From Patescibacteria group bacterium (lineage in GTDB: Bacteria; Patescibacteriota; Minisyncoccia; Minisyncoccales; RBG-13-36-15), in contig JAHCSE010000001.1 of the NCBI GenBank assembly GCA_018609195.1, positions 9,559-73,558 on the forward strand: a DNA stretch of 64,000 nucleotides, in the 5' to 3' direction. The notes under the pieces were generated by a model. The model was not told the DNA's origin. It saw nothing but the letters and a program-made list of their open reading frames with translations, and did not search any database. Made by a program: the position numbers and the translations under genes. Below, in pieces: positions 3,736 to 57,476 of the stretch; position 1 is the first letter of the stretch, and each line of letters starts with the position of its first letter.

Positions 3736-4470
3736 CAATACTCGGCTGCCATTTTTTGTTACCGCAATTGTTTGTTCAAAATGGGCTGAAAGAGAACCAT
3801 CTTGAGTTTCATAGCCAAACCCATCTTTTGTTTTTTTAAGTTTCCAATCCCCTATTGTTACCATAGGTTCAATGCAAATTACCATACCTTCTTTTAGCTC
3901 AATTCCTTTATGTCTTTTCCCATAGTTTAAAATTTTTGGGTCCTCATGTAATTCTTTGCCAATTCCGTGGCCACAGAGTTCTCTTACTACATTGTATCCT
4001 TGAGATTCCACATATCTTTGAATGGTATTTGAGATATCCCCTATGGTATTTCCTGGCCTTACTTTTTTAATTCCTCTTTTTAAAGCCTTTTTTGTTACTC
4101 TTATTAATCGTAATGTTTCCGGATTAACTTTTCCTACTGGTAAGGTCACCGCCATATCATTGTGAAAACCCTTATATAAAATCCCCAAATCCAAAGTTAA
4201 AACATCTCCTTCTTTCAAAACTCGATTAGAAGGAACAGAATGGACAATCTCTTCGTTGATTGAACTACAGAGACAGGTTGGAAAACCTTCATATCCTTTG
4301 AAAGAACATTTCCCCCCATATTTTAAAATCAGGCTCTCTGCGAGCCTGTTCAGTTCTTTAGTCGTTATTCCCGGTCTTACTTTCCCTATCAATTCTTTCA
4401 TTATCTTGCCAAGAATTTTTCCACCTTCTGTCATGATTTGAATTTCTTCTGAGGATTTAATCGTTATCAT
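3721..4470 (-). CDS. map: Methionine aminopeptidase type I
   Basis: 249 aa; typical MetAP metal-binding residues (D..D..H..E..E context: GHGIGKELHEDP, ICIEPM). Confidence 0.9.
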   Translation of the reverse strand: MITIKSSEEIQIMTEGGKILGKIMKELIGKVRPGITTKELNRLAESLILKYGGKCSFKGYEGFPTCLCSSINEEIVHSVPSNRVLKEGDVLTLDLGILYKGFHNDMAVTLPVGKVNPETLRLIRVTKKALKRGIKKVRPGNTIGDISNTIQRYVESQGYNVVRELCGHGIGKELHEDPKILNYGKRHKGIELKEGMVICIEPMVTIGDWKLKKTKDGFGYETQDGSLSAHFEQTIAVTKNGSRVLTNLE

Positions 4471-5159
4471 TTTAAAGCCTTTAAAATATCTTGAAAAACT
4501 GCCTCCACCGATTGTTCGCCATTAACTTCTTTTATTTGTAATCCGTGTTTTTTGAAATAATCTATCAAAGGAAGTGTTCTTTCTTGATATTCTTTTAATC
4601 TAACTTTAATCACTTCTCTGGTATCATCCTTACGAATTATTAATCTTGAACCATCTAAGGGACATTTTCTCAATTTGGCGGTTTCTTGTGTATACAAAAT
4701 CGGATGGCGCATTAACTTACAGATTCTTCTTCTTGTGCCTCTCCAGATAGATTGTTCTGGGCTTAATGTGATAAGAATTATTTTTATATTTGAGGCCTTA
4801 TATAATTTTTTTAGAAAAGGGGTAACTTCTTTCCCTTCGTATAGAGTCCGAGGAGAGCCGGCTATCGACAGTCCCTTCCCCACCTTTGCTAGTTCTTTAA
4901 TCTTATTTTTTATCCAAAAAACAATTAAAGGAGGACTCATTAGTTTTCCCCTCTCTCGCATTTTTTTTTCTTCAATTAAAAAATATTTCTTTCCTTTAAC
5001 AATAATAAAATCGTCTTTTTTAATATTTTTTAAATTAGCGTCGATAATCCTACTTGTCTCCAAGTAATACAAATTCAATTTCTCAGCTAATAACTCAGCT
5101 TGGGTCCCTTTCCCAGATCCCGGCGGCCCTAATAATATAATCACTTGTTTATTACTCAT
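4467..5159 (-). CDS. adk: Adenylate kinase (long form with Cys4 LID)
   Basis: 230 aa; GPPGSGKGTQ P-loop; LID region with RRICKLMRHP...CPLDGSRL zinc-type motif; conserved position secY-adk-map. Confidence 0.85.
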   Translation of the reverse strand: MSNKQVIILLGPPGSGKGTQAELLAEKLNLYYLETSRIIDANLKNIKKDDFIIVKGKKYFLIEEKKMRERGKLMSPPLIVFWIKNKIKELAKVGKGLSIAGSPRTLYEGKEVTPFLKKLYKASNIKIILITLSPEQSIWRGTRRRICKLMRHPILYTQETAKLRKCPLDGSRLIIRKDDTREVIKVRLKEYQERTLPLIDYFKKHGLQIKEVNGEQSVEAVFQDILKALK

Positions 5160-15674: not shown

Positions 15675-15678
15675 ACTT

Positions 15679-15745
15679 TCCTACGAATTACTCTATCGCT
15701 AAGCGACTCCCCGGAGGGTTGATATTTGCGAATATACGAATAATA
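15679..15745 (-). promoter_or_regulatory. TTCGTA-repeat leader/promoter motif upstream of rplC
   Basis: Minus-strand TATTCGTATATTCGCA...GTAATTCGTAGGAAAGT-ATG. Confidence 0.45.
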
Positions 15746-21501: not shown

Positions 21502-21504
21502 AAA

Positions 21505-21545
21505 CCCTACGAATTACGAATCAGTACGAATATACGAATAAATTT
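21505..21545 (-). promoter_or_regulatory. TTCGTA-repeat leader/promoter motif upstream of rpsL
   Basis: Minus-strand TATTCGTATATTCGTACTGATTCGTAATTCGTAGGGTTT-ATG. Confidence 0.45.
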
Positions 21546-24251: not shown

Positions 24252-25325
24252 TCAGAAATGTAAAACATCTACCATTTGTTTAATTAAAGAAAGAACCACT
24301 GCCGGAGGCAATAAACTGTAAGAAGGAACTCCTTTATCATCAGGAAAAACCCAGGGTTTTTCAATTATTTCCACCTTTTTATCTTCCTCTATCCACTTAT
24401 AGTTATATTCGGGAGTAATTTCATAATCATCTACATATTCTTTTACCCTCTCTACAGGAACTGAATTTCTCAGAAGAATCCTGGGAATTCCATAAAGAGC
24501 GAAGGCTTGTTTAATCAACCGTTCATCCATTGTAAAACGCCTCTTTATTGGCTCTATTCCTCGCTCATCTCCTTCTTTTGCGACCATTTTTATTTCCTGA
24601 CAAGTGGGATTATCACAAATAAAGAAAAACTTTTTGCTCAGTTCATCGTATCTAACTTCTTTCGCTGGATGAAGCCTTAAATTTCTGGGGGTTTGACAGT
24701 TAGGACACACTACTCGAAATTTCATTCTCTCGTCAATTACTTTTCCAGGAACATCAATCAAAATAAAGACATCAGGGTCAGATCTGTAACCAATAAGGTC
24801 TCGGAAAAATAAAGAATATGAGATCTGATCCAAATCTCTCGGAAAACCATCTATAAAAAGGGCTTTTCTTTCCATTTTGTCTATCTCTCCTTTCGCTAAG
24901 GCTAAAATAAATTCAGTTGGCAAAAGAGTCTCCGTATTTCTACTCAAGAGTTTTTCAATTGCTTTCTCAATGGGAAGGAAGCCTCGATAATTTGAGGAAA
25001 GCCGGTGTATCAATTCTTCTTTGTTTTTTTGTTCTAAAATTTCTTGGTGCGATTTTCGAACGATATCTCCAATCGAAACGTGACTCACGCGTTCTTTATT
25101 AACAATCTCTGCAAATATCTTTGAGTAAGTTCCTTTGCCAGAATTCTTTTTCCCCAAGAGATAAGCAATGAAAGTATTTTTCTTGAGATACTCTCTTAAT
25201 TTCTTGATTTCCGATCCCGCCTTGAACTCAAAATATTCCTGTATCTCTTTGGGATCAGCTAAATTGAATTTCCGAGTGGGACCTTTAATTTTTGTTTTAA
25301 AAATCGGGAAGTTAATATCCCTCAT
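24252..25325 (-). CDS. Divergent adenylate/NMP-kinase family paralog with zinc LID and N/C extensions
   Basis: 357 aa; GKKNSGKGT P-loop (AK-type GxxGxGKGT), DGFPR NMP-binding motif, CPNC...CDNPTC. Confidence 0.55.
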   Translation of the reverse strand: MRDINFPIFKTKIKGPTRKFNLADPKEIQEYFEFKAGSEIKKLREYLKKNTFIAYLLGKKNSGKGTYSKIFAEIVNKERVSHVSIGDIVRKSHQEILEQKNKEELIHRLSSNYRGFLPIEKAIEKLLSRNTETLLPTEFILALAKGEIDKMERKALFIDGFPRDLDQISYSLFFRDLIGYRSDPDVFILIDVPGKVIDERMKFRVVCPNCQTPRNLRLHPAKEVRYDELSKKFFFICDNPTCQEIKMVAKEGDERGIEPIKRRFTMDERLIKQAFALYGIPRILLRNSVPVERVKEYVDDYEITPEYNYKWIEEDKKVEIIEKPWVFPDDKGVPSYSLLPPAVVLSLIKQMVDVLHF

Positions 25326-25328
25326 AGT

Positions 25329-25362
25329 CCTACGAATTACGAATATTTACGAATATACGAAC
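25329..25362 (-). promoter_or_regulatory. TTCGTA-repeat leader/promoter motif upstream of the kinase paralog
   Basis: Minus-strand GTTCGTATATTCGTAAATATTCGTAATTCGTAGGACT-ATG. Confidence 0.45.
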
Positions 25363-25364
25363 AG

Positions 25365-26219
25365 TTATTTTATTTTTAGATTTGTTCCGTCAGAAATAAT
25401 TTTAATATCTCCGTCTTCATCAGTCCTCAGCACTTTTATACCATGTTTCTTTAAAGTTTCCAAAGTTTCTTGATGGGGATGTCCGTAGCGATTATTCCTG
25501 CCGACCGGGATTACGGCGATCTCAGGAGTAACAGCTTCCAGAAACTCTTCGGCAGTTGAGGTCCTGCTGCCTTGATGAGCTACTTTTAAAATATCAGAAT
25601 CAATGAAAATGTTTTTCTCAACCAATGTTTTCTCCACTGATTTATAGATATCACCAGTCAGCAAAAAAGAATTTTCTCCAAAAACTAATCGAGCGACAAT
25701 TGAAGTATTGTTCGTATTTTTCACCGTTTTTCCTTCTAAATTTTCAGATGGATGTAAAATGTCTAAACGAGCTCTAGATGCCCCTATCCTTTGGCCAGCT
25801 TTGGCAATGAAAATCTGAGCTCCCTCTTTTTGAATTAACTTTTGCCATTCTCGAGCTTCGGACGTATCTTTCACAATTCCCGTCCATAAAATATTTTCCA
25901 CTTTATATCTTTTTAACACCTCCAAAAGCCCAGCAAGATGATCTTTATCAGGATGAGTTAAAATTATAAGATCAATCGTTCTATCGAAAAAAGGTATTTC
26001 CTTTCCCAGTTTTTCCAAAATAGTGGAATCCGGTCCCCCATCAATTAAAATTTGATGCGATTGCGGGGTTTCAATAAAAATAGCATCACCTTGGCCGACA
26101 TCAAAAAAAGTAACCTCAAGGAATCTTGGCTGGCTTAAATCGTAAACAGCAATCCAGGCTAAGATATTAAGGAAAAACAGAATACCTAAAATAATAAAAG
26201 CACTGTTATGCTTTTTCAT
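25365..26219 (-). CDS. Signal-anchored MBL-fold hydrolase resembling the ComEC/Rec2 C-terminal lactamase domain
   Basis: 284 aa; FFDVGQGDAIFIE, ILTHPDKDH, HQGS, RYGHP. Confidence 0.65.
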   Translation of the reverse strand: MKKHNSAFIILGILFFLNILAWIAVYDLSQPRFLEVTFFDVGQGDAIFIETPQSHQILIDGGPDSTILEKLGKEIPFFDRTIDLIILTHPDKDHLAGLLEVLKRYKVENILWTGIVKDTSEAREWQKLIQKEGAQIFIAKAGQRIGASRARLDILHPSENLEGKTVKNTNNTSIVARLVFGENSFLLTGDIYKSVEKTLVEKNIFIDSDILKVAHQGSRTSTAEEFLEAVTPEIAVIPVGRNNRYGHPHQETLETLKKHGIKVLRTDEDGDIKIISDGTNLKIK

Positions 26220-26294
26220 TGATTTTATTATAACGAACTATGTTCGATATATCACGCTGCGCGTGCTATAGGTTAGTTTATTGTGATTGAAAAC

Positions 26295-26317
26295 AAAAAA
26301 CCGCCTTCTTGGCGATT
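26295..26317 (-). terminator. Conserved terminator hairpin repeat (copy 1 of 5)
   Basis: Minus strand AAUCGCC-AAGAA-GGCGGUUUUUU. Confidence 0.65.
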
Positions 26318-26338
26318 AGAATGGTATTTTAGTAACTT

Positions 26339-26704
26339 TTATTTTTTATACCTTCGTTCATTAGTTTTATAACCAGTATCTGATGACCAAATAAGAAACA
26401 GCCTCTTTTTAAACCCTCCCTTAATCTTTGTACCCTCTTTCTGGGCATTTTTTATTTGCTGATTTGTAATTCCCTTAAATCTCTTTATTTCCTGAACAAC
26501 ATCTAAAACATCGGCTAACTCTGAAATCAATTTCTTTTTAGTTTTTGCGGCAAGTAAACCGTCTGCTTCTTCCCCTACTTTTTTTATGAGTTCTTTTTCA
26601 AAATCTTTTGCGTTTAATTTTCTTATTTTAAAATCGCCCCCGCTCTTTTTAATCTTTTCTGGTATTTTGTCACGAATTAGCTTATTGTAGCATATCTTTT
26701 TCAT
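26339..26704 (-). CDS. MazG/HisE-like all-alpha NTP pyrophosphohydrolase
   Basis: 121 aa; YNKLIRDKIPE...ELADVLDV. Confidence 0.6.
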   Translation of the reverse strand: MKKICYNKLIRDKIPEKIKKSGGDFKIRKLNAKDFEKELIKKVGEEADGLLAAKTKKKLISELADVLDVVQEIKRFKGITNQQIKNAQKEGTKIKGGFKKRLFLIWSSDTGYKTNERRYKK

Positions 26705-26718
26705 TATTTCATTCTATC

Positions 26719-26742
26719 AAAAAACCGCCTTCTTGGCGATTT
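26719..26742 (-). terminator. Conserved terminator hairpin repeat (copy 2)
   Basis: AAAAACCGCCTTCTTGGCGATTTTTT. Confidence 0.65.
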
Positions 26743-26822
26743 TTTTGTGGCTTCATCTATGAAAAGAAAAAGGCGACACGATAACCTCGGGTCGCCACTA
26801 AAAAAGAACAATTATAGTTTTG

Positions 26823-27479
26823 TTATTCAAGCCTATAATCCATAATATCCAAGAACCAATAACCTTCCATTTTAACTGGCCTGCTTTTCAGTATCCTTAT
26901 TTTCTTCTTAAATAGCGGGCCATCTACTACAAGGGTATGGTATTCGCCGTTCTCACCGCAAGGGTCAATATGTTTATATGCTCTCAAGTCTTTAAGAAAT
27001 TCCATATCCAGTCTTCTTCCAATCCACTCTTCACCAAGAAGACTTGCTTGGGTGCTTACTATTATTGCCTCAAATCCCGAATCTATGAATTCTAAAAGAA
27101 TTTCTTCTGGATTGCGACCCCAGAGAGGTTCAACCAACCGAAGACCGAGTTCTCCGCAAATCTTCTCTGCCCACTCTAAACAGTGCTGGAGGTGAATATC
27201 ACCAAAGACCATTCCCGATACTCCTCCTGGAAGCAATCTCCGCACGGCTTCCTTAAATTCTTGTTCGTATCCATCGGGCGTAGTCTCTACTTGCAAAATG
27301 GGAATACCCATTACTTGGGCTTGTGTTTGGATAAGCCCGGCTTCTATGCCGTGGAATCGGACACGCTTGAATTCTCTGGAAATAGTGTTGAAGAGATACG
27401 AAATATCATATCCTTCACGCTTTGCCTTATAGACGGCAAGGCAACTATCTTTGCCGCCGCTCCAAGAGGAAATATACAT
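26823..27479 (-). CDS. PP-loop ATPase of the Dph6 / MJ0570 (diphthine-ammonia ligase-like, DUF71) family
   Basis: 218 aa; SWSGGKDS PP-loop, EYHT. Confidence 0.65.
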   Translation of the reverse strand: MYISSWSGGKDSCLAVYKAKREGYDISYLFNTISREFKRVRFHGIEAGLIQTQAQVMGIPILQVETTPDGYEQEFKEAVRRLLPGGVSGMVFGDIHLQHCLEWAEKICGELGLRLVEPLWGRNPEEILLEFIDSGFEAIIVSTQASLLGEEWIGRRLDMEFLKDLRAYKHIDPCGENGEYHTLVVDGPLFKKKIRILKSRPVKMEGYWFLDIMDYRLE

Positions 27480-27725
27480 TTTTCTCTTCCCTCCTTAACT
27501 GCAGATGTATTTTAAGTTAATTTAGATATTTGTAAAGAGTTAGGTTATATAGATTTTCACAAAAACAATCATTCAATAAAGAGTGGCGTTTTATTTTTTT
27601 AGGCTCCCAGACGGCGACTCAAACCCTTAAACCCTCACCTCCAACTCAAATTTAAGCCAATTATTGGACCATTGTCTATGGTCTCTCAGATTACGAACGG
27701 TGGTCTACTAATGGTTATTAAGGAT

Positions 27726-27747
27726 AAAAACCGCCTTCTTGGCGATT
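27726..27747 (-). terminator. Conserved terminator hairpin repeat (copy 3)
   Basis: AAAAACCGCCTTCTTGGCGATT. Confidence 0.65.
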
Positions 27748-27841
27748 AAGTTGGCTCCCCAGTCTAAATCTTATTATAATTTTGGAGGATTGGGAATATG
27801 TGCAACATCTAAGAAATCGGGTAAGTGGTCTGACTCCCAAC

Positions 27842-28087
27842 TCATACCTGTAGAAAAACCCCAAAGAACTGAAGGCCAAATCCAATAGTAAAAAGGATAA
27901 AGCCAACTTTTCCCAACTTCCTACCTTTTAGGTGTCTCTTTTGCTTGTAATTACCTTTGTGATCCATATCTACGATAAGATCATCATCGACATTCTCATG
28001 TGCTCGCAAATAAGGATATAGCATCACTAACGATGCCGCTGTATTAAATAAGAGTCCTACCAAAATTAAAATGATAGAAAGGTCCAC
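27842..28087 (-). CDS. Small membrane protein (2 TM)
   Basis: 81 aa; hydrophobic profile only. Confidence 0.35.
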   Translation of the reverse strand: MDLSIILILVGLLFNTAASLVMLYPYLRAHENVDDDLIVDMDHKGNYKQKRHLKGRKLGKVGFILFTIGFGLQFFGVFLQV

Positions 28088-28092
28088 AAATT

Positions 28093-28917
28093 TTATTCTT
28101 TAACCCGTGGAATTAAATCTTTTAACGACTGCTCATCCATTGGCCCAGCAAACTCAACAAGAATGTTATCTACTTCCTTATAACTCTCCGGGTCTTTTAA
28201 CTCCATGTAAGTCATTTTCAAAGCAATTAAAGTGGTCACCATAGCATTTTTTAGAGCCTCCATATTTCTCAAGGTATAATGTGCACCGCCATACCTATTC
28301 CAATCAAAATCTTCATTGAAAACATCTACACTATCCAAAAGTGCGGCGTAAGAACAATGTGTATACTTAGAAAAACCTCTATATACATCTGTGGCCATGC
28401 TGTAAGGTGACAAACCATGCTCTTCCACAGATTTAATGGATCCCTTCTTAATAAATTCATCTGACAACCGGCGAGCTACTCTATTCGTAATTATTTCACC
28501 CTCAAACCATTTTTTAAGATGCGTCTGTTCTTTGTCTAAATGAAATGTGTGAATTAGATCTAAATTTTCGTTGATTGATCGAGTCAACTCCATTATCTCA
28601 AAGTTATATCCTCTCCTAGCTAAAAGAAAAATTGCCTCCCATGTCTGAAGTACCTTCCCATATATTAAGTAAACAGCGCACAGAGTGGTTTGTTCTGATA
28701 TCTCCGGTATTAGACTTTTTAATTTTCTAACTTTCTCCTCTATCTGAAAGTGAATAGACTCCAATCCTTTTAACTTTTCTTGAATGTCCTGCAAATCTTT
28801 TCCTTGTTGTTGTTGAGGATAAGATGGATTCTGCTCAAAATATTTCCTCCCTCTGTGCGCCCTCATCTTAGCAACACGATCTTGAATAAGCTGCTTTATT
28901 TTTTCATCGAGACTCAT
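28093..28917 (-). CDS. Hypothetical protein (start chosen at internal MSLDEK; ORF extends to 29025)
   Basis: Coding-like composition; no recognised family; upstream ORF part overlaps a terminator repeat. Confidence 0.45.
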   Translation of the reverse strand: MSLDEKIKQLIQDRVAKMRAHRGRKYFEQNPSYPQQQQGKDLQDIQEKLKGLESIHFQIEEKVRKLKSLIPEISEQTTLCAVYLIYGKVLQTWEAIFLLARRGYNFEIMELTRSINENLDLIHTFHLDKEQTHLKKWFEGEIITNRVARRLSDEFIKKGSIKSVEEHGLSPYSMATDVYRGFSKYTHCSYAALLDSVDVFNEDFDWNRYGGAHYTLRNMEALKNAMVTTLIALKMTYMELKDPESYKEVDNILVEFAGPMDEQSLKDLIPRVKE

Positions 28918-28933
28918 ATATATAATTCTAACA

Positions 28934-28956
28934 AAAAAACCGCCTTTTTGGCAATT
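28934..28956 (-). terminator. Conserved terminator hairpin repeat (copy 4)
   Basis: AAAAAACCGCCTTTTTGGCAATT. Confidence 0.6.
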
Positions 28957-29071
28957 TGTGCAGCTGAAAACATCAGACCAAAATTTGATGCCCTTGAGCT
29001 GTTTCAATAAAAATAGAAAACCCAAAACCCTTTTAAGGCCTTGGGCTAAATAGTTTATAGTCTAAGGTTAT

Positions 29072-29224
29072 TTACTTTCCCAAAATTCTATACATTTTGG
29101 TGCCACATTTCGGGCAGGTTCCAGTCAAAGCTCTTCTCGTTGTTCCTCCCTTTCCCTTCATAGATACTTCTTTCTCATCTTGTATTTCTCTTTTGGCTTT
29201 ACATTTTACGCAATAAGCTTCCAT
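29072..29224 (-). CDS. Small Cys4 zinc-ribbon protein (50 aa)
   Basis: Hand-translated MEAYCVKCKAKREIQDEKEVSMKGKGGTTRRALTGTCPKCGTKMYRILGK; below the ORF-track cutoff. Confidence 0.4.
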   Translation of the reverse strand: MEAYCVKCKAKREIQDEKEVSMKGKGGTTRRALTGTCPKCGTKMYRILGK

Positions 29225-30731: not shown

Positions 30732-31253
30732 TTAGTATTCAACCCCTATTTTTGCTAAAACCCCTTTTTTAAAAGGGTGTTTTATTTCTTTACATTCAGT
30801 TGCCAAATCAGCAATCTTAATTAACTCTTTGGGGGCACCTCTCCCAGTAAGAATTAAATCTACTTCAGAAGGAGCTTTTTTTAGAATTTCCAAGACTTCT
30901 CTTAATTTAATGAGATTTAAAGAGATGGCAACATTTACTTCATCTAAAATTATCAAGTCAAATTCTCCAGAATGAATCGCATTTTTGGCAATTTTTAAGG
31001 TCTCTCGGGCTGCAAGTTCGTGAACTTCTCGGGGAAGCTTGTCCCCCATTATCCCAACAAAACCTTCTCCGCCTTTTATCAATTGAAATTTTGGTTCTAG
31101 GCTTTGGATGGTCTTTTCCTCGCCAGTTGGCCATTTTTTACTTTTAATGAACTGAATCATCAAAACTCGCTTTCCCTGGCCAACTGCCCGAATTCCCTGG
31201 CCAATGGCAGCTGTCGTTTTCCCTTTTCCATTCCCAGTAAAAACAAAAATCAT
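30732..31253 (-). CDS. cobO: Cob(I)alamin adenosyltransferase (CobO/BtuR family)
   Basis: 173 aa; MIFVFTGNGKGKTTAAIGQ. Confidence 0.8.
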   Translation of the reverse strand: MIFVFTGNGKGKTTAAIGQGIRAVGQGKRVLMIQFIKSKKWPTGEEKTIQSLEPKFQLIKGGEGFVGIMGDKLPREVHELAARETLKIAKNAIHSGEFDLIILDEVNVAISLNLIKLREVLEILKKAPSEVDLILTGRGAPKELIKIADLATECKEIKHPFKKGVLAKIGVEY

Positions 31254-33553
31254 GTTTGAGGTATTTGAGCAGGTACACTCCCTTCTTCAGAGTCAAACTC
31301 ACACACACCTCCTACACAGGCTAACTCTTTGAAACCTGTGGTTTCATCTTCTTTCTCATAAACGATAATCTGGGCAAAGTCAACTTTTGGTAGTTTCTCT
31401 ACCAGTTCTTGATATTTTTCCTCATCGATTTCCTCGTAGGGAGCAAGTCGATAGACATGTTCTGCGCGTGGAATAAAAGAGAGCCCTCCTAAAATATTCC
31501 AGTTATCATAAAGCCAGTATGTAGCTTGAATCCACTCGTTCTCACCTACAGAAACGGTAACTGAGGGATTATGCTCGGTGAAATTTTCCTTCACCATCTT
31601 CCAGTGTCTAAGTTGATCGAGTGCTGTTAAATCATTTCGGAAAACAGCTCTCTCGGGAGATTTTACTGGAAACTCAAGCACAAAGGTCGTGGCCGAGTCC
31701 TCGAGCTGTCCAACTTCAGGATGATATGGAAATTTTTGTTCTTTCAACATTTGGAAAAGAGGGTCATTTGCCGATATACGAACTCGTCTAATATAAAAGG
31801 GAGAGTGTCGAGGGTGCATACCAGAGGCAGCATCCACAAGTTGAGATAATGTACCTGAAGGTTTGACACAGGTGATGCAGGTTGATTCCGAAATCCCAAA
31901 TTTCTTGGCATATTCACGATTGATTTCGAGCGATCTTTCCCGAAGTTTCCTGAGGGTTTCGGCTGATCTAGCTGCAGGACAATCCCACTGACCGGTTATC
32001 GAAATTCCTAAAAGCCTTTCCTCCTCGCAGTTTTGCTTCCATTCTTTTGAAAGATAAGAAAAATTGGTGAGAGTAGATTGATAGGTACCGAGCAAGGTGG
32101 CGATTTCGATCTTTTTCAGAAGAGATTCTTCAGTATCCTCGGGTCTGGCCACTACCTCGGTTAAATTGCAAAATTGTTTGGATCTTAATATAATTTCTCC
32201 GCATGGATTTGTGCCGGCAGTGGCCCAATATTTTTTAAATGTCTTCCAGCGCCTCTCTGGTAATTGATGTTTTAATCCTCCTCTATTAAAAATGCCTCTC
32301 TCGCCAGTTCCACTTTTAGCGAGCGCTAACCATTCTTCAAGAAACTGGATTGCGCTGGGTTTCTCATTATAAACCGCGGAGTTGTTGGCCATCGATCTCT
32401 GAGGATCAGTAACATAAAACTGGCCAGCTTTAGCTCCCCTCATATCTTCATCGTCGAGATCAGAAAGGGATATTAAAGCAGATCTTCGCACTCCACCCAT
32501 CACTACAATTTCCCCAATTTTGCAGATAATGTCATGAACATCAAGATTGGAGAGGCGTTTTCCTTGACGACTCAAAACTTTAGAGCGAACAAAATCTAAA
32601 AGTGATTTAAGTGCCCCAGGGCCTGAACTTCGACCTCCCATGGTCTTTAACTTTGATCCTGCTGGCCGAATCTTGGAGTAATCAAATATAATATCTTTAC
32701 CATTATACCAGGCTTTAAGTCCGATAGTTAACGCATCTCCCCATCCCTCTTTGCTGTCTAAAATTACATGGGCAGGTAATACTTGACCGGTCTGGCGTTT
32801 CACAATTGGTAGCTGCTGGACCGTTTGACTCTCCACTGAGAAGCCAACTCCTGTACCGCACATTAAAAGATATATAATTTCAGCAAAATCACGAAACTCG
32901 CTTGGTGCAATAAAAGAACAGTTATACACTGAGACATTGGAAGCCCTCGCTGCTTTCCCGGCAGCCCATAAAAGTCTCATCGATGGCATCACTTGATGAT
33001 TTAGGATTGCCTCTTTTATTTCCTGGTATTCGTTATCTCTTAACTTCTTGCCAAGATTCTCTCTCATGAAATCCACATAGCGATTGACCGTCTCAATCCA
33101 GGTTTCTCTCCTTCCCTCCTCTTCAATCCAGCGAGAATAAGTACGATAATAAATAAACTCAGCCAGCTCATTCCTGAAATATTTCCTACTCTTTCGCACA
33201 AGACCCTGCACCCGCTCGGGAATTAACTTCTTTTTTTCCCGAACTTCAGCTCTTGCTTGCCGATAGAGAATGTAAGCTTTTGCTGTCTTTGGAAAATCTC
33301 TCAGAATCAGAGTTTCTTCTACTAAGTCTTGAGTCCCCTCCACTTGAGGAATGTGAGGAGGAGGATAACGCTTCTCGAGTTTTTTCACTACCCTGTCTGA
33401 AATTCGAAGAGGATCTCGCGAAAGATTCCCTTCCCCAGCAGCTTGCATTGCTTTGGAGATTGCATTGGTAATTCGATTTTGGTCAAACGGAACAATATTG
33501 CCTTCTCTTTTTCGAATTTCTTTAATTTTATTTTTCAATTTTGGAAGCTGCAT
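31250..33553 (-). CDS. nrdJ: Class II (adenosylcobalamin-dependent) ribonucleotide reductase
   Basis: 767 aa; NPCGEI active-site loop, N-terminal ATP-cone-like region. Confidence 0.9.
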   Translation of the reverse strand: MQLPKLKNKIKEIRKREGNIVPFDQNRITNAISKAMQAAGEGNLSRDPLRISDRVVKKLEKRYPPPHIPQVEGTQDLVEETLILRDFPKTAKAYILYRQARAEVREKKKLIPERVQGLVRKSRKYFRNELAEFIYYRTYSRWIEEEGRRETWIETVNRYVDFMRENLGKKLRDNEYQEIKEAILNHQVMPSMRLLWAAGKAARASNVSVYNCSFIAPSEFRDFAEIIYLLMCGTGVGFSVESQTVQQLPIVKRQTGQVLPAHVILDSKEGWGDALTIGLKAWYNGKDIIFDYSKIRPAGSKLKTMGGRSSGPGALKSLLDFVRSKVLSRQGKRLSNLDVHDIICKIGEIVVMGGVRRSALISLSDLDDEDMRGAKAGQFYVTDPQRSMANNSAVYNEKPSAIQFLEEWLALAKSGTGERGIFNRGGLKHQLPERRWKTFKKYWATAGTNPCGEIILRSKQFCNLTEVVARPEDTEESLLKKIEIATLLGTYQSTLTNFSYLSKEWKQNCEEERLLGISITGQWDCPAARSAETLRKLRERSLEINREYAKKFGISESTCITCVKPSGTLSQLVDAASGMHPRHSPFYIRRVRISANDPLFQMLKEQKFPYHPEVGQLEDSATTFVLEFPVKSPERAVFRNDLTALDQLRHWKMVKENFTEHNPSVTVSVGENEWIQATYWLYDNWNILGGLSFIPRAEHVYRLAPYEEIDEEKYQELVEKLPKVDFAQIIVYEKEDETTGFKELACVGGVCEFDSEEGSVPAQIPQT

Positions 33554-34122
33554 TATTTTATTGTACCAAATTTTGTTTTGGGCAACAAAATGGCTCTCTT
33601 TAATAGATAGTATATGAGTCTTTTATTCAAAACGAACTCGTAAACTCCGAAAAACAAGGTGACATAGAAAAGATTTCCTAAAATTGTATTTTTAAAAAAT
33701 AGTAAAGCCATGTAATAAGAAAGAAGCAATCCAGAAAGATCCTCTGGATACCAAGGGGTAAAAGCCCAGACAGCAAAATTAGTGATGAGATAAAACAATA
33801 GCGCTGCAAATAAAGAACTACTCAATATCATTCCCGGGCCTTTGTGTTTCCTCAACCAAAGGCCTATTAGACCGATTATACCAAAGCTCCCATATACTGC
33901 AATCATTAATTTTAAGCTATAAAACCCGATAAAATAATCACTTATCAACATGGCGAGAAGAGGCGCAACCAAGAAATACTTTTTTCTAAGATAAACACCG
34001 CCAAACAAAGAAATAGCTGCAATGGGAGCAAAATTAGGGGGGTGGGGCAAAAGCCTTAGACTCACTCCGATGATAATTAAGACCAATACACCTAAAATTT
34101 CTAAAATTTTTTCTTTTTTCAT
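33553..34122 (-). CDS. Polytopic membrane protein, possibly ECF-type substrate (B12) capture component
   Basis: 189 aa, 5-6 TM; context next to nrdJ and DUF4430. Confidence 0.4.
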   Translation of the reverse strand: MKKEKILEILGVLVLIIIGVSLRLLPHPPNFAPIAAISLFGGVYLRKKYFLVAPLLAMLISDYFIGFYSLKLMIAVYGSFGIIGLIGLWLRKHKGPGMILSSSLFAALLFYLITNFAVWAFTPWYPEDLSGLLLSYYMALLFFKNTILGNLFYVTLFFGVYEFVLNKRLIYYLLKRAILLPKTKFGTIK

Positions 34123-34805
34123 TTATTTTTTAGGGATACTTTTTGTATATTCATATACATTAGCGAATCTTTTGCATGCTTCGAATAAACATTTATATGA
34201 ATGCTTTTCTTAAATGGTGGCCCATCTACAACCATGGTATGATACTCCCCTTGTTCCCCACAAATATCAAGCCCCGTTTCGGCATTTATTGCCCGCAACC
34301 GCTCTAAAGAATCCTTCTTAAGTTCCATTCCAAGCAAATTATCATCCGTAAACCAAGGTTTCTTTATACAAGTAAAAATTAATTTAAATCTGTATGAAAG
34401 AAGTCGATTAAGAAGTTCTAATCTATCACGTCCCCACAGTGGAGTTAGGACACCAATACCTGAATATTTACTGCATTCTCTTACCCAATTAGGGTGGCCA
34501 TCAACTTCTGCAATATCGCCAGTTATTAATGTAGCTATTCCGTGTTTTTCTTTTAAAGAATGAATAGCTTTTTCATAGCTTTCTTTGAATGGCTCATTAA
34601 CCTCCAATGCATAATGTGGAATACCCAAAGCTTCTGCTTGATATTTCATAAAACTAAGAGGATGAGCAAGAAATTCTGGTTCACTGGGAATGAACGTAAC
34701 TAGACTTATAACTCTATATCCCAACAACTTTGCTTCATAAAGAGCCAAAGAAGAATCTTTCCCACCAGTCCACGATACGGCTGCGTTCCTCATCACTTTA
34801 TTCAT
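34119..34805 (-). CDS. Second Dph6/MJ0570-family PP-loop ATPase paralog
   Basis: 228 aa; SWTGGKDS, EYHT. Confidence 0.65.
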   Translation of the reverse strand: MNKVMRNAAVSWTGGKDSSLALYEAKLLGYRVISLVTFIPSEPEFLAHPLSFMKYQAEALGIPHYALEVNEPFKESYEKAIHSLKEKHGIATLITGDIAEVDGHPNWVRECSKYSGIGVLTPLWGRDRLELLNRLLSYRFKLIFTCIKKPWFTDDNLLGMELKKDSLERLRAINAETGLDICGEQGEYHTMVVDGPPFKKSIHINVYSKHAKDSLMYMNIQKVSLKNK

Positions 34806-35679: not shown

Positions 35680-35830
35680 AAAAATGTGTCCTCCTCCGTT
35701 AAAACTTTGGAGGACATGGATGGCATTCTGACTTTCACAGTTACGGCATAGTCCCGGATTTCCTGCCCGCATCGCTATACGAAGTATTGCAGGCGGGTCA
35801 CCGGAGTTCCCCATCCGTTTTCAAAGTCCG
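35680..35830 (-). ncRNA. Candidate cobalamin riboswitch in the 5' leader of the B12-uptake/nrdJ gene string
   Basis: Minus-strand GGGGAACTCCGGTGACCCGCC ... GGAAATCCGGGACTATGCCGTAACTGTGA resembles GGGAAnnnGGTGa / AAnTCC / CCGCnACnGTnA cores; GC-rich and structured. Confidence 0.4.
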
Positions 35831-57453: not shown

Positions 57454-57476
57454 AAAAAACCGCCTTCTCGACGATT
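57454..57476 (-). terminator. Conserved terminator hairpin repeat (copy 5)
   Basis: AAAAAACCGCCTTCTCGACGATT. Confidence 0.55.

Follow-up and report, generated by a model that had tools for sequence, protein, structure and literature searches.

Intrinsic terminators share a structure and not a sequence, namely a GC-cored stem-loop followed by a U-run, and extended -10 (TGn) sigma-70 promoters carry TGnTAnAAT with a -35-like hexamer at 17 nt and, in the leaderless form described in Actinobacteria, Deinococcus and others, the start codon 6–8 nt further on. Among short palindromic, multi-copy intergenic repeats, the repetitive extragenic palindromic (REP) sequences of proteobacteria with their bacterial interspersed mosaic elements (BIMEs), and the Correia elements of Neisseria, can terminate transcription, stabilise transcripts or serve as promoters. 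Putative mobile promoters are near-identical upstream sequences found before non-homologous genes, within or between distant genomes (Matus-Garcia, Nijveen and van Passel 2012; PMC3575422). The element analysed here is a 22-nt repeat, AATCGCCAAGAAGGCGGTTTTT on the gene (minus) strand, of which five copies are present in a 64,000-nt stretch of contig JAHCSE010000001.1 (the whole stretch is called the window below) from a bacterium of the Patescibacteria, or Candidate Phyla Radiation (CPR). The repeat has a well-defined sequence anatomy, geometry, orientation and distribution, and it is probably the constant part of a lineage-wide composite junction, in which the putative terminator of one gene would at the same time provide the upstream half of the predicted promoter of the next. 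Hardly any member of the CPR/Patescibacteria has been cultured, and next to nothing has been described of their transcription signals; a limited literature search yielded no relevant work on CPR/Patescibacteria promoters, terminators, leaderless mRNAs or this element.

A search allowing up to three mismatches found the five copies in the window, against no match in 100 dinucleotide-preserving shuffles of its sequence. The initial annotation had described five identical copies; their number and places were confirmed, with four of them inside 2.66 kb, but only three of the five are identical, the other two carrying two mismatches each. The copies, together with two terminators that stand beside them, are as follows.

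26296–26317, minus strand: copy 1, exact; starts 22 nt past the stop codon of the 121-aa HisE/MazG-like gene
26702–26741, minus strand: copy 2 with its predicted promoter; exact repeat at 26741–26720 (26720–26741 on the forward strand), promoter elements directed toward the 121-aa gene
26762–26796, minus strand: the Dph6-like gene's own terminator, GGCGAC...GTCGCC followed by TTTTTCTTTT; upstream of copy 2
27726–27747, minus strand: copy 3, exact; starts 95 nt past the stop codon of the 81-aa membrane protein gene, with no -10 box after it
28915–28956, minus strand: copy 4 with its predicted promoter; variant AATTGCCAAAAAGGCGGTTTTT at 28956–28935, promoter of the 274-aa gene
29009–29047, minus strand: the DUF5679 zinc-ribbon gene's own strong terminator, a 13-bp stem with a T-run; upstream of copy 4
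57455–57476, minus strand: copy 5, variant AATCGTCGAGAAGGCGGTTTTT; starts 39 nt past the stop codon of a small Cys-rich protein gene

All five copies are intergenic and oriented like the genes, every neighbouring gene being on the minus strand. On this strand the RNA of the repeat forms a 7-bp stem (AAUCGCC/GGCGGUU, with one G·U pair) closed by a 5-nt loop, and a run of five to seven T residues stands directly 3' of the stem-loop at each of the five copies, as in an intrinsic terminator; the same likeness extends to location, each copy lying downstream of, and co-oriented with, a gene, and a terminator scan of the window flagged the hairpin. Both variant copies have a C of the 5' arm replaced by T, and pairing is then kept, as G·U, only in the gene-strand RNA. 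An A-tract upstream of the repeat permits an extended stem of about 11 bp, a feature shared with bidirectional terminators bearing A- and T-tracts, and copy 2 with this tract folds as an 11-bp stem. The spacings of the clustered copies (424, 1006 and 1209 bp, with whole genes in every interval) are not those of a CRISPR array. Alignment of the five copies with 50-nt flanks revealed no similarity beyond about 24 nt, which ruled out a larger mobile element around the repeat. Rfam 15 reported no family at any repeat copy or at the associated modules described below, either at the gathering threshold or at E<=1; its only matches in the window are a tRNA and an adenosylcobalamin (AdoCbl) riboswitch, and a known RNA family was rejected as the identity of the repeat.

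The copies differ in what follows the hairpin. At copy 2, a -35-like TCGCCA (26739–26734), a TG (26719–26718) and a -10 box TAGAAT (26716–26711) succeed one another, and the ATG of the 121-aa gene (26704) begins 6 nt past the -10 box, the full layout from 26741 to 26702 being AATCGCCAAGAAGGCGGTTTTT-TGATAGAAT-GAAATA-ATG. The layout of copy 4, from 28956 to 28915, is AATTGCCAAAAAGGCGGTTTTT-TTGTTAGAAT-TATATAT-ATG, with a -35-like TTGCCA at 28954–28949, an extended -10 box TGTTAGAAT ending at 28925 and the ATG (28917) 7 nt later. A promoter scan independently called both of them, as TCGCCA-17-TAGAAT and TTGCCA-18-TAGAAT, each with the TG. A TGn and, behind it, a -10 hexamer whose second base is A and whose sixth is T are present at these two copies and absent at copies 1, 3 and 5, after which other promoters or non-coding DNA are found and no -10 box is correctly placed. 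The metallo-beta-lactamase (MBL) gene downstream of copy 1 is preceded by a separate promoter, GTGATA-17-TATAAT, which 7 nt divide from the ATG at 26219; copy 3 is preceded by '...GACTGGGGAGCC', a remnant resembling a tRNA 3' end; and copy 5 is followed by a promoter of canonical form, TTGACA-17-TATAAT, and by an ArsR-type gene with a leaderless ATG. We infer that copies 2 and 4 are the promoter-coupled form of the element, for the 121-aa and 274-aa genes, respectively. Copies 1, 3 and 5 look like terminators only, a role which the missing -10 box fits. The earlier view that each copy directly follows a single gene does not hold for the copy at 27747, which follows a two-gene unit (274 and 81 aa), nor for those at 26741 and 28956, which stand behind the separate terminators of the Dph6-like and zinc-ribbon genes.

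The same anatomy recurs in a comparison set of 180 CPR copies (up to three mismatches), taken from loci that had been fetched by the motif itself. The conserved unit exceeds 22 nt, the consensus of 175 copies being aAAAAATCGCCAAGAAGGCGGTTTTTTGgTAgAAT. Immediately behind the hairpin, 106 of the 180 have an extended -10 box, for the most part TGGTAGAAT or TGATAGAAT, and 12 have a TTGAC-type -35 box. The 5' arm and the first loop base together read TCGCCA, or TTGCCA in some copies. In 103 of 113 copies a spacer of exactly 17 nt separates this -35-like hexamer from the -10 hexamer. The T-run measures 6 nt in 102 of the 113 promoter-coupled copies and varies between 5 and 7 nt in copies that are not promoter-coupled. 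The start codon is found 6–8 nt past the -10 box, with a mode of 6 nt over 152 sites and no Shine-Dalgarno sequence, and in the window, where this distance is 6 nt at copy 2 and 7 nt at copy 4, the gene calls of the Joint Genome Institute (JGI) agree with these start codons. The downstream gene is on the strand of the repeat in 143 of 152 cases, as is the gene upstream in 134 of 148. Distances between the repeat end and the start codon peak sharply at 15–17 nt, and those from the upstream stop codon to the repeat are broadly spread over 0–300 nt. Such phasing to the start codon of the next gene distinguishes the repeat from ordinary terminators, as does the presence of one and the same stem in roughly 70 or more species representatives. 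From known extended -10 leaderless promoters it differs in that the -35 and spacer region coincides with a conserved hairpin and T-run, the putative terminator, and in that the -35-like hexamer is the GC-enriched TCGCCA.

These distances bear on an alternative in which the repeat is a plain intrinsic terminator, the favoured hairpin of these AT-rich genomes, and a nearby -10 box reflects tight intergenic packing. A plain terminator would account for the co-oriented hairpin and U-run behind stop codons and tRNAs, for the three window copies of five that lack a -10 box, for the complete canonical TTGACA promoter that follows some copies and for the other hairpins that hold the same place in relatives, but not for a phasing set by the downstream start codon instead of the upstream stop, nor for the constancy of the 17-nt spacing (103 of 113), a T-run of constant length only in front of a -10 box, and the conservation of the first two loop bases. 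Copies 2 and 4 stand behind terminators that exist already. At 11 copies the upstream gene is divergent, a promoter-only setting with nothing to terminate; a convergent downstream gene, the terminator-only setting, was found at seven. Moreover, two other genomes have a homolog of the 121-aa gene (37–41% identity) with the repeat and an extended -10 box directly upstream, so the stem stays constant across genes of only this identity, which is evidence, at the level of sequence comparison, of strong selection on the repeat. Taken together, a plain terminator is an unlikely explanation.

The composite junction, which we regard as probable, would operate in the following way. In the gene-strand RNA, the short GC-cored hairpin with its U-run would end the transcript of the upstream gene or tRNA, and the full form aAAAAATCGCCAAGAAGGCGGTTTTTTGgTAgAAT would, as DNA, constitute the upstream half of the promoter of the next gene. 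TCGCCA or TTGCCA, in the 5' arm and first loop base, would serve as the -35-like hexamer, the 3' arm and T-run would make up the 17-nt spacer, and the extended -10 box TGnTAGAAT would come directly after. With the start codon placed 6–8 nt past the -10 box, the downstream mRNA is predicted to be leaderless. Translation without a leader requires that the mRNA begin with the AUG, so every such gene would have to have a promoter of its own, which would result in strings of one- and two-gene units. The overlapping constraints of stem pairing, -35-likeness, U-run and TG may keep the same sequence recurring across lineages. The layout hairpin-T6-TGnTAnAAT-N6-8-ATG also occurs with other stems (CCCGAGA/TCTCGGG, GCGGGT/ACCCGC and ACCAC/GTGGT) in the motif-bearing loci and in relatives of the window, so the placing of a hairpin beside a predicted promoter is general, with AATCGCC/GGCGG as its dominant version. 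By crude counts, a Shine-Dalgarno-like sequence precedes about 10 of the 87 open reading frames (ORFs) of the window, and a -10-like box stands 4–9 nt before the start codon in about 17 of the 87; translation in this organism may thus often start on leaderless mRNAs or in some other atypical way.

If this reading is true, an approximately 36-nt, sequence-conserved terminator/promoter junction is common to many CPR species and offers a testable model of how single genes are separated and expressed in tiny genomes, with leaderless mRNAs as a common mode of expression in the CPR. It would also be of practical help when start codons and transcription units are annotated in genome bins of the CPR, and would provide a candidate portable promoter/terminator for genetic tools. 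The "string of singly terminated genes" that first drew attention to the locus would then be the outcome of a style of expression inside a hypervariable slot, and not a dedicated nucleotide-metabolism module.

Several points weigh against the composite junction. The hairpin is weak for a terminator, with a folding energy of -8.3 kcal/mol and four G–C pairs in the stem. The -35-like hexamer is a weak match to TTGACA (only 4 of 6 positions for TCGCCA, 5 of 6 for TTGCCA), extended -10 promoters need no -35 box, and a -35-like hexamer is missing altogether from some of the hairpin-coupled promoters (e.g. locus L124). The comparison loci, having been fetched by the motif, are a biased sample, and their ORF calls are heuristic. 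In 62 secondary copies, which were not selected by the fetch, the stem and the loop bases 8–9 (AA) are near-invariant and bases 10–11 vary freely, but single substitutions keep the pairing in 26 cases and break it in 27, so that selection on structure is not clearly apparent. No repeat lies within 10–20 kb of the homologous site in the closest relatives (69–79% identity of the adenylate kinase (ADK)-like protein), on which orthologous conservation of the repeat among the nearest relatives was rejected, and the distribution is patchy in general, which the overlapping constraints alone do not explain. Finally, the stem is conserved far beyond what a plain terminator needs, and a sequence-specific binding factor might be responsible instead, an alternative to which we give little weight.

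Stated in full, this alternative holds that a conserved CPR DNA-binding protein, either a global repressor or a MerR-like regulator of many promoters, has its operator in AATCGCC-N5-GGCGRTT, a palindrome with its centre at about -29, in the space from -35 to -10. Conserved inverted half-sites around a partly variable centre, a fixed place relative to the -10 box and sequence conservation in excess of structural need are what an operator would show, and the perfectly palindromic GGCGATT is the commonest stem substitution in the secondary copies (12 of 62). However, GGCGGTT, the form of most copies, is imperfect as a palindrome in DNA and does pair as RNA, many copies have no promoter downstream, copies right behind tRNAs suit a terminator better, the genes downstream have no common theme, and no candidate regulator was identified in this analysis. 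An operator is accordingly given a low probability.

The distribution of the repeat was determined by scanning GTDB species representatives (one genome per species) with the pattern AATYGYCRARAAGGCGGTTTT. At least 111 stretches carry it, and all but about 13 of the matches listed belong to Patescibacteria/CPR assemblies; counted by accession prefix among the matches listed, it occurs in roughly 70 or more CPR species-level genomes. The record titles of the matches, as deposited, name Nealsonbacteria, Parcubacteria, Paceibacterota, Minisyncoccales, Doudnabacteria and Kerfeldbacteria. Among the non-CPR matches, 7 of 11 fall inside ORFs and look like chance. At the same time, none of the 2.9 million viral contigs of IMG/VR contains a match, and a phage origin of the repeat was rejected. 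Ten of 126 copies sit 5–32 nt past a tRNA, five of these ten following tRNA-Asn. The genes downstream are unrelated (95 Pfam families among 81 proteins), and a functional regulon was rejected, as these families have no theme. The repeat is a generic, lineage-wide gene-boundary signal of the CPR and is not specific to this locus. The initial annotation had proposed a terminator-like repeat reflecting a common regulatory design, and this part of it was borne out by the hairpin, the T-run, the co-orientation and the CPR-wide occurrence. Its companion proposal of a nucleotide-pool or competence-associated module was not, with the same 22-mer standing beside unrelated genes and tRNAs in those 70 or more representatives; what was found agrees in spirit, at the level of the lineage, with the generic terminator after unrelated genes that had been named there as the contrary outcome.

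A sequence over-represented across related lineages and placed in terminator-like inverted repeats also recalls the DNA uptake sequence (DUS) of Neisseria and the uptake signal sequence (USS) of Haemophilus, which often sit in terminators, and the ComEC-type MBL gene next to the repeats could be taken to favour a signal for ComEC-dependent DNA import in the CPR. Such a signal is hardly credible here. In the comparison set 160 of the 180 copies were called intergenic, 121 of them between two co-oriented genes and mostly co-oriented with their neighbours, with the other 20 inside heuristic ORFs; the density in the window is low (five copies in 64 kb); the copies are phased to start codons; and the repeat is missing from close relatives. 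A DUS-like identity was rejected on the intergenic, co-oriented distribution.

The four clustered copies bound exactly the stretch of the window that varies between relatives. This stretch and its conserved neighbourhood comprise the following features.

26296–28956, minus strand: variable slot, bounded by copies 4 and 1, with the 274-aa, 81-aa, second Dph6-like and 121-aa genes
27575–27655 (about), minus strand: non-coding fragment resembling a tRNA 3' half (TTGAGTTGGAGGTGAGGGTTTAAGGGTTTGAGTCGCCGTCTGGGAGCC), homologous to a fragment in the slot of relative L002 that matches the tRNA-Asn 3' end
24252–26219, minus strand: conserved core pair, MBL gene and ADK-like gene, found side by side in 8 of 10 metagenomic relatives and not bounded by repeats

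Relatives have kept the gene order ThiI ... MBL + ADK-like ... M50-S12-S7-EF-G-EF-Tu, and between ThiI/zinc ribbon and the MBL + ADK-like pair the gene content was different in every relative examined. The four genes of the slot are missing from this position in relatives L123, L125, L127, L128, L130 and L002, which have other genes there: nothing in the slot of L123, an alpha/beta hydrolase with small ORFs in L002, an Fe-S/ParA-type gene set in L125 and a PRK-family kinase in L130. L002 also has two repeat copies in the same slot, along with its tRNA-Asn 3'-end fragment. The window itself matches JGI contig Ga0137937_1000065 (71 kb, metagenome 3300010931).

Such an arrangement could also reflect a propagating or recombinogenic repeat, be it REP/BIME-like, a mobile promoter or a short attC-like site, at whose copies new accessory genes would be inserted, with the four clustered window copies as the boundaries of three cassettes. 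The four copies would then bracket the variable genes as site-(274+81)-site-(Dph6)-site-(121)-site, and the motif is patchy among close relatives and widespread across the CPR, which suits this explanation. So does genome JACZRI01 (B100T1L10), in which seven copies within one 8-kb stretch are each part of a larger repeat, about 65 nt in length, with a module resembling a tRNA 3' end, as do the tRNA-Asn 3'-end fragments within the slot. However, no integrase, transposase or RAYT-type gene is among the annotated genes of the window, the strict co-orientation and start-codon phasing are typical of an expression signal, and the 2.9 million viral contigs gave no match. Homologs of the 274-aa protein (a 30-protein family) are motif-free in three other contexts, so this gene does not travel with the motif, and a cassette travelling with the motif was rejected. 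The recombinogenic explanation is, on these grounds, quite improbable. Equally improbable is the proposal that the 22-mer and the tRNA-3'-half-like modules by which it is often preceded in other CPR genomes form a short hairpin site for insertion or exchange of accessory genes, whether REP/BIME-like, minimally attC-like or through homology-facilitated recombination after ComEC-mediated uptake. If it were true, CPR genomes would carry "expression slots" with shared terminator/promoter bounds, and the ThiI–MBL slot would be a three-cassette example.

Like putative mobile promoters, the repeat precedes non-homologous genes, both within a genome and across distant ones; with its 22–36 nt it is much shorter than the minimum of 50 nt set for them (PMC3575422). 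It differs from them also in having a predicted terminator role, and no mobility mechanism is evident. With REP/BIME sequences, REPINs (paired REP elements) and Correia elements it shares the short palindromic, multi-copy, intergenic character, and with BIMEs the occurrence in mosaics with other short modules, here the tRNA-3'-like classes A and B. In contrast to the REP/REPIN systems associated with RAYT (REP-associated tyrosine transposase), it has no GTAG head, inverted pairs or terminal repeats, the copies being single and in one orientation, and no RAYT or Y1 transposase was found within the window. As in integrons, hairpin repeats lie between co-oriented, mostly single accessory genes in a variable region, but the repeat is 22–24 nt long (attC, 57–141 nt), has no R''/L''/L'/R' boxes, GTTRRRY core or conserved flanks, and supplies a predicted promoter, whereas integron cassettes are usually promoterless. 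No recombinase (tyrosine integrase) Pfam family was present among the window genes annotated or scanned, and an attC/integron identity was rejected for the lack of core sites, the wrong length and the missing integrase. The cassette-like or mobile assembly proposed by the initial annotation is supported as far as clustered copies in an accessory region that varies between relatives are concerned, but not with regard to attC-like features around the repeats, of which none was found, or to a recombinase in the window.

The 22-mer is accompanied in other CPR genomes by two further short modules. Class A, 'AAAC-AGGTTCTAACATCGTCC-N6-9-(C/G)GGAGC', is commoner than the 22-mer in motif-bearing genomes, its 17-mer core giving 120 matches with up to three mismatches in about 0.8 Mb (loci L001–L111, e.g. 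L106, L092, L097 and L032). In the cases inspected it lies from a few to about 25 nt past stop codons, just upstream of terminator hairpins, and is sometimes tandem. It resembles the half of tRNA-Asn from the T-loop to the 3' end, does not fold as a T-arm and was called by neither ARAGORN nor Rfam; a possible pairing of its TTCTAAC with the -10 region GKTAGAA, considered as an attC-type feature, showed no covariation. The canonical form is absent from the window, which has degenerate remnants at about 27750–27775 and 27603–27625 (minus strand). Module B, 'GTGCTCGGTTCGAGNGACCGAGNNGCAT', is a hairpin that resembles a T-arm and has nine nucleotides in its loop (L002, L019, L022, L036, L097, L107 and others); it lies between class A, or a real tRNA-Asn, and the 22-mer, the resulting intergenic mosaic of tRNA-like A, B, 22-mer and promoter having a BIME-like layout.

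The genes of the locus were identified from Pfam and NCBIfam profile results. The 357-aa protein (24252–25325, minus) is an ADK-family paralog, similar to nucleoside monophosphate kinases, the canonical adk being located at 4467–5159 between secY and map. The 284-aa protein (25365–26219, minus) is an MBL domain of the ComEC C-terminal type (TIGR00361, E=1.6e-44), and the 218-aa protein is a Dph6-like PP-loop protein (Diphthami_syn_2, E=1e-56), a second paralog with 34% identity to the copy at 34119–34805. These three assignments agree with those made initially; the "MazG-like" one rests on a weak HisE/MazG-superfamily match of the 121-aa protein (E=1e-4), for which no PDB match was found. The statement that all these proteins act on nucleotides or nucleic acids was too broad, as the 274-aa, 81-aa and zinc-ribbon (50-aa, DUF5679) proteins have no assigned function, the 81-aa membrane protein matching no family in Pfam or NCBIfam. 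The repeats had also been said to separate the MBL and ADK-like genes, and in fact no copy separates or follows either. Moreover, this conserved pair lies outside the repeat-bounded part and is found in relatives that have no repeat, which again speaks against a nucleotide-pool or competence module. The ADK-like family is large and well conserved in Patescibacteria (4274 homologs at E<=1e-20, many about 65% identical), and its MBL neighbour, in the window and in loci L115–L131, is usually membrane-anchored and of the ComEC C-terminal type; the pair could have a role in DNA or nucleotide salvage.

The 274-aa protein is weakly DUF5677-like. Its gene starts at ATG 28917, as in the JGI call of 274 aa, the listed 310-aa ORF with a TTG start (28093–29025) overcalling the start, and it forms with the 81-aa gene, 5 nt away, the two-gene unit upstream of copy 3. 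The family is rare (30 proteins in a collection of 5.8 billion clusters), and at locus L134 a homolog is flanked by an HTH_3 gene on one side and by the gene of an HsdR-like type I restriction helicase on the other, a neighbourhood that hints at a defence-island gene.

Elsewhere in the window, an AdoCbl-II (B12) riboswitch at 35713–35827 (minus) precedes a co-oriented gene run for DUF4430, the Dph6-like protein at 34119–34805, DUF6580, ribonucleotide reductase (31250–33553) and a CobA/CobO adenosyltransferase, which suggests a B12-controlled ribonucleotide reductase operon that includes a Dph6-like PP-loop protein. Additionally, TTCGTA repeat units, 'ttcgtatattcgta...attcgtaattcgtagg', were observed on the minus strand directly 5' of the start codons of the ADK-like gene (25326–25364) and of rpsL (21502–21545), with a shorter version, 'gagtaattcgtaggaaagt', in the rplC 5' region (15675–15700, minus); these units could represent a 5' signal common to the three genes, or else an unusual setting for ribosome binding.

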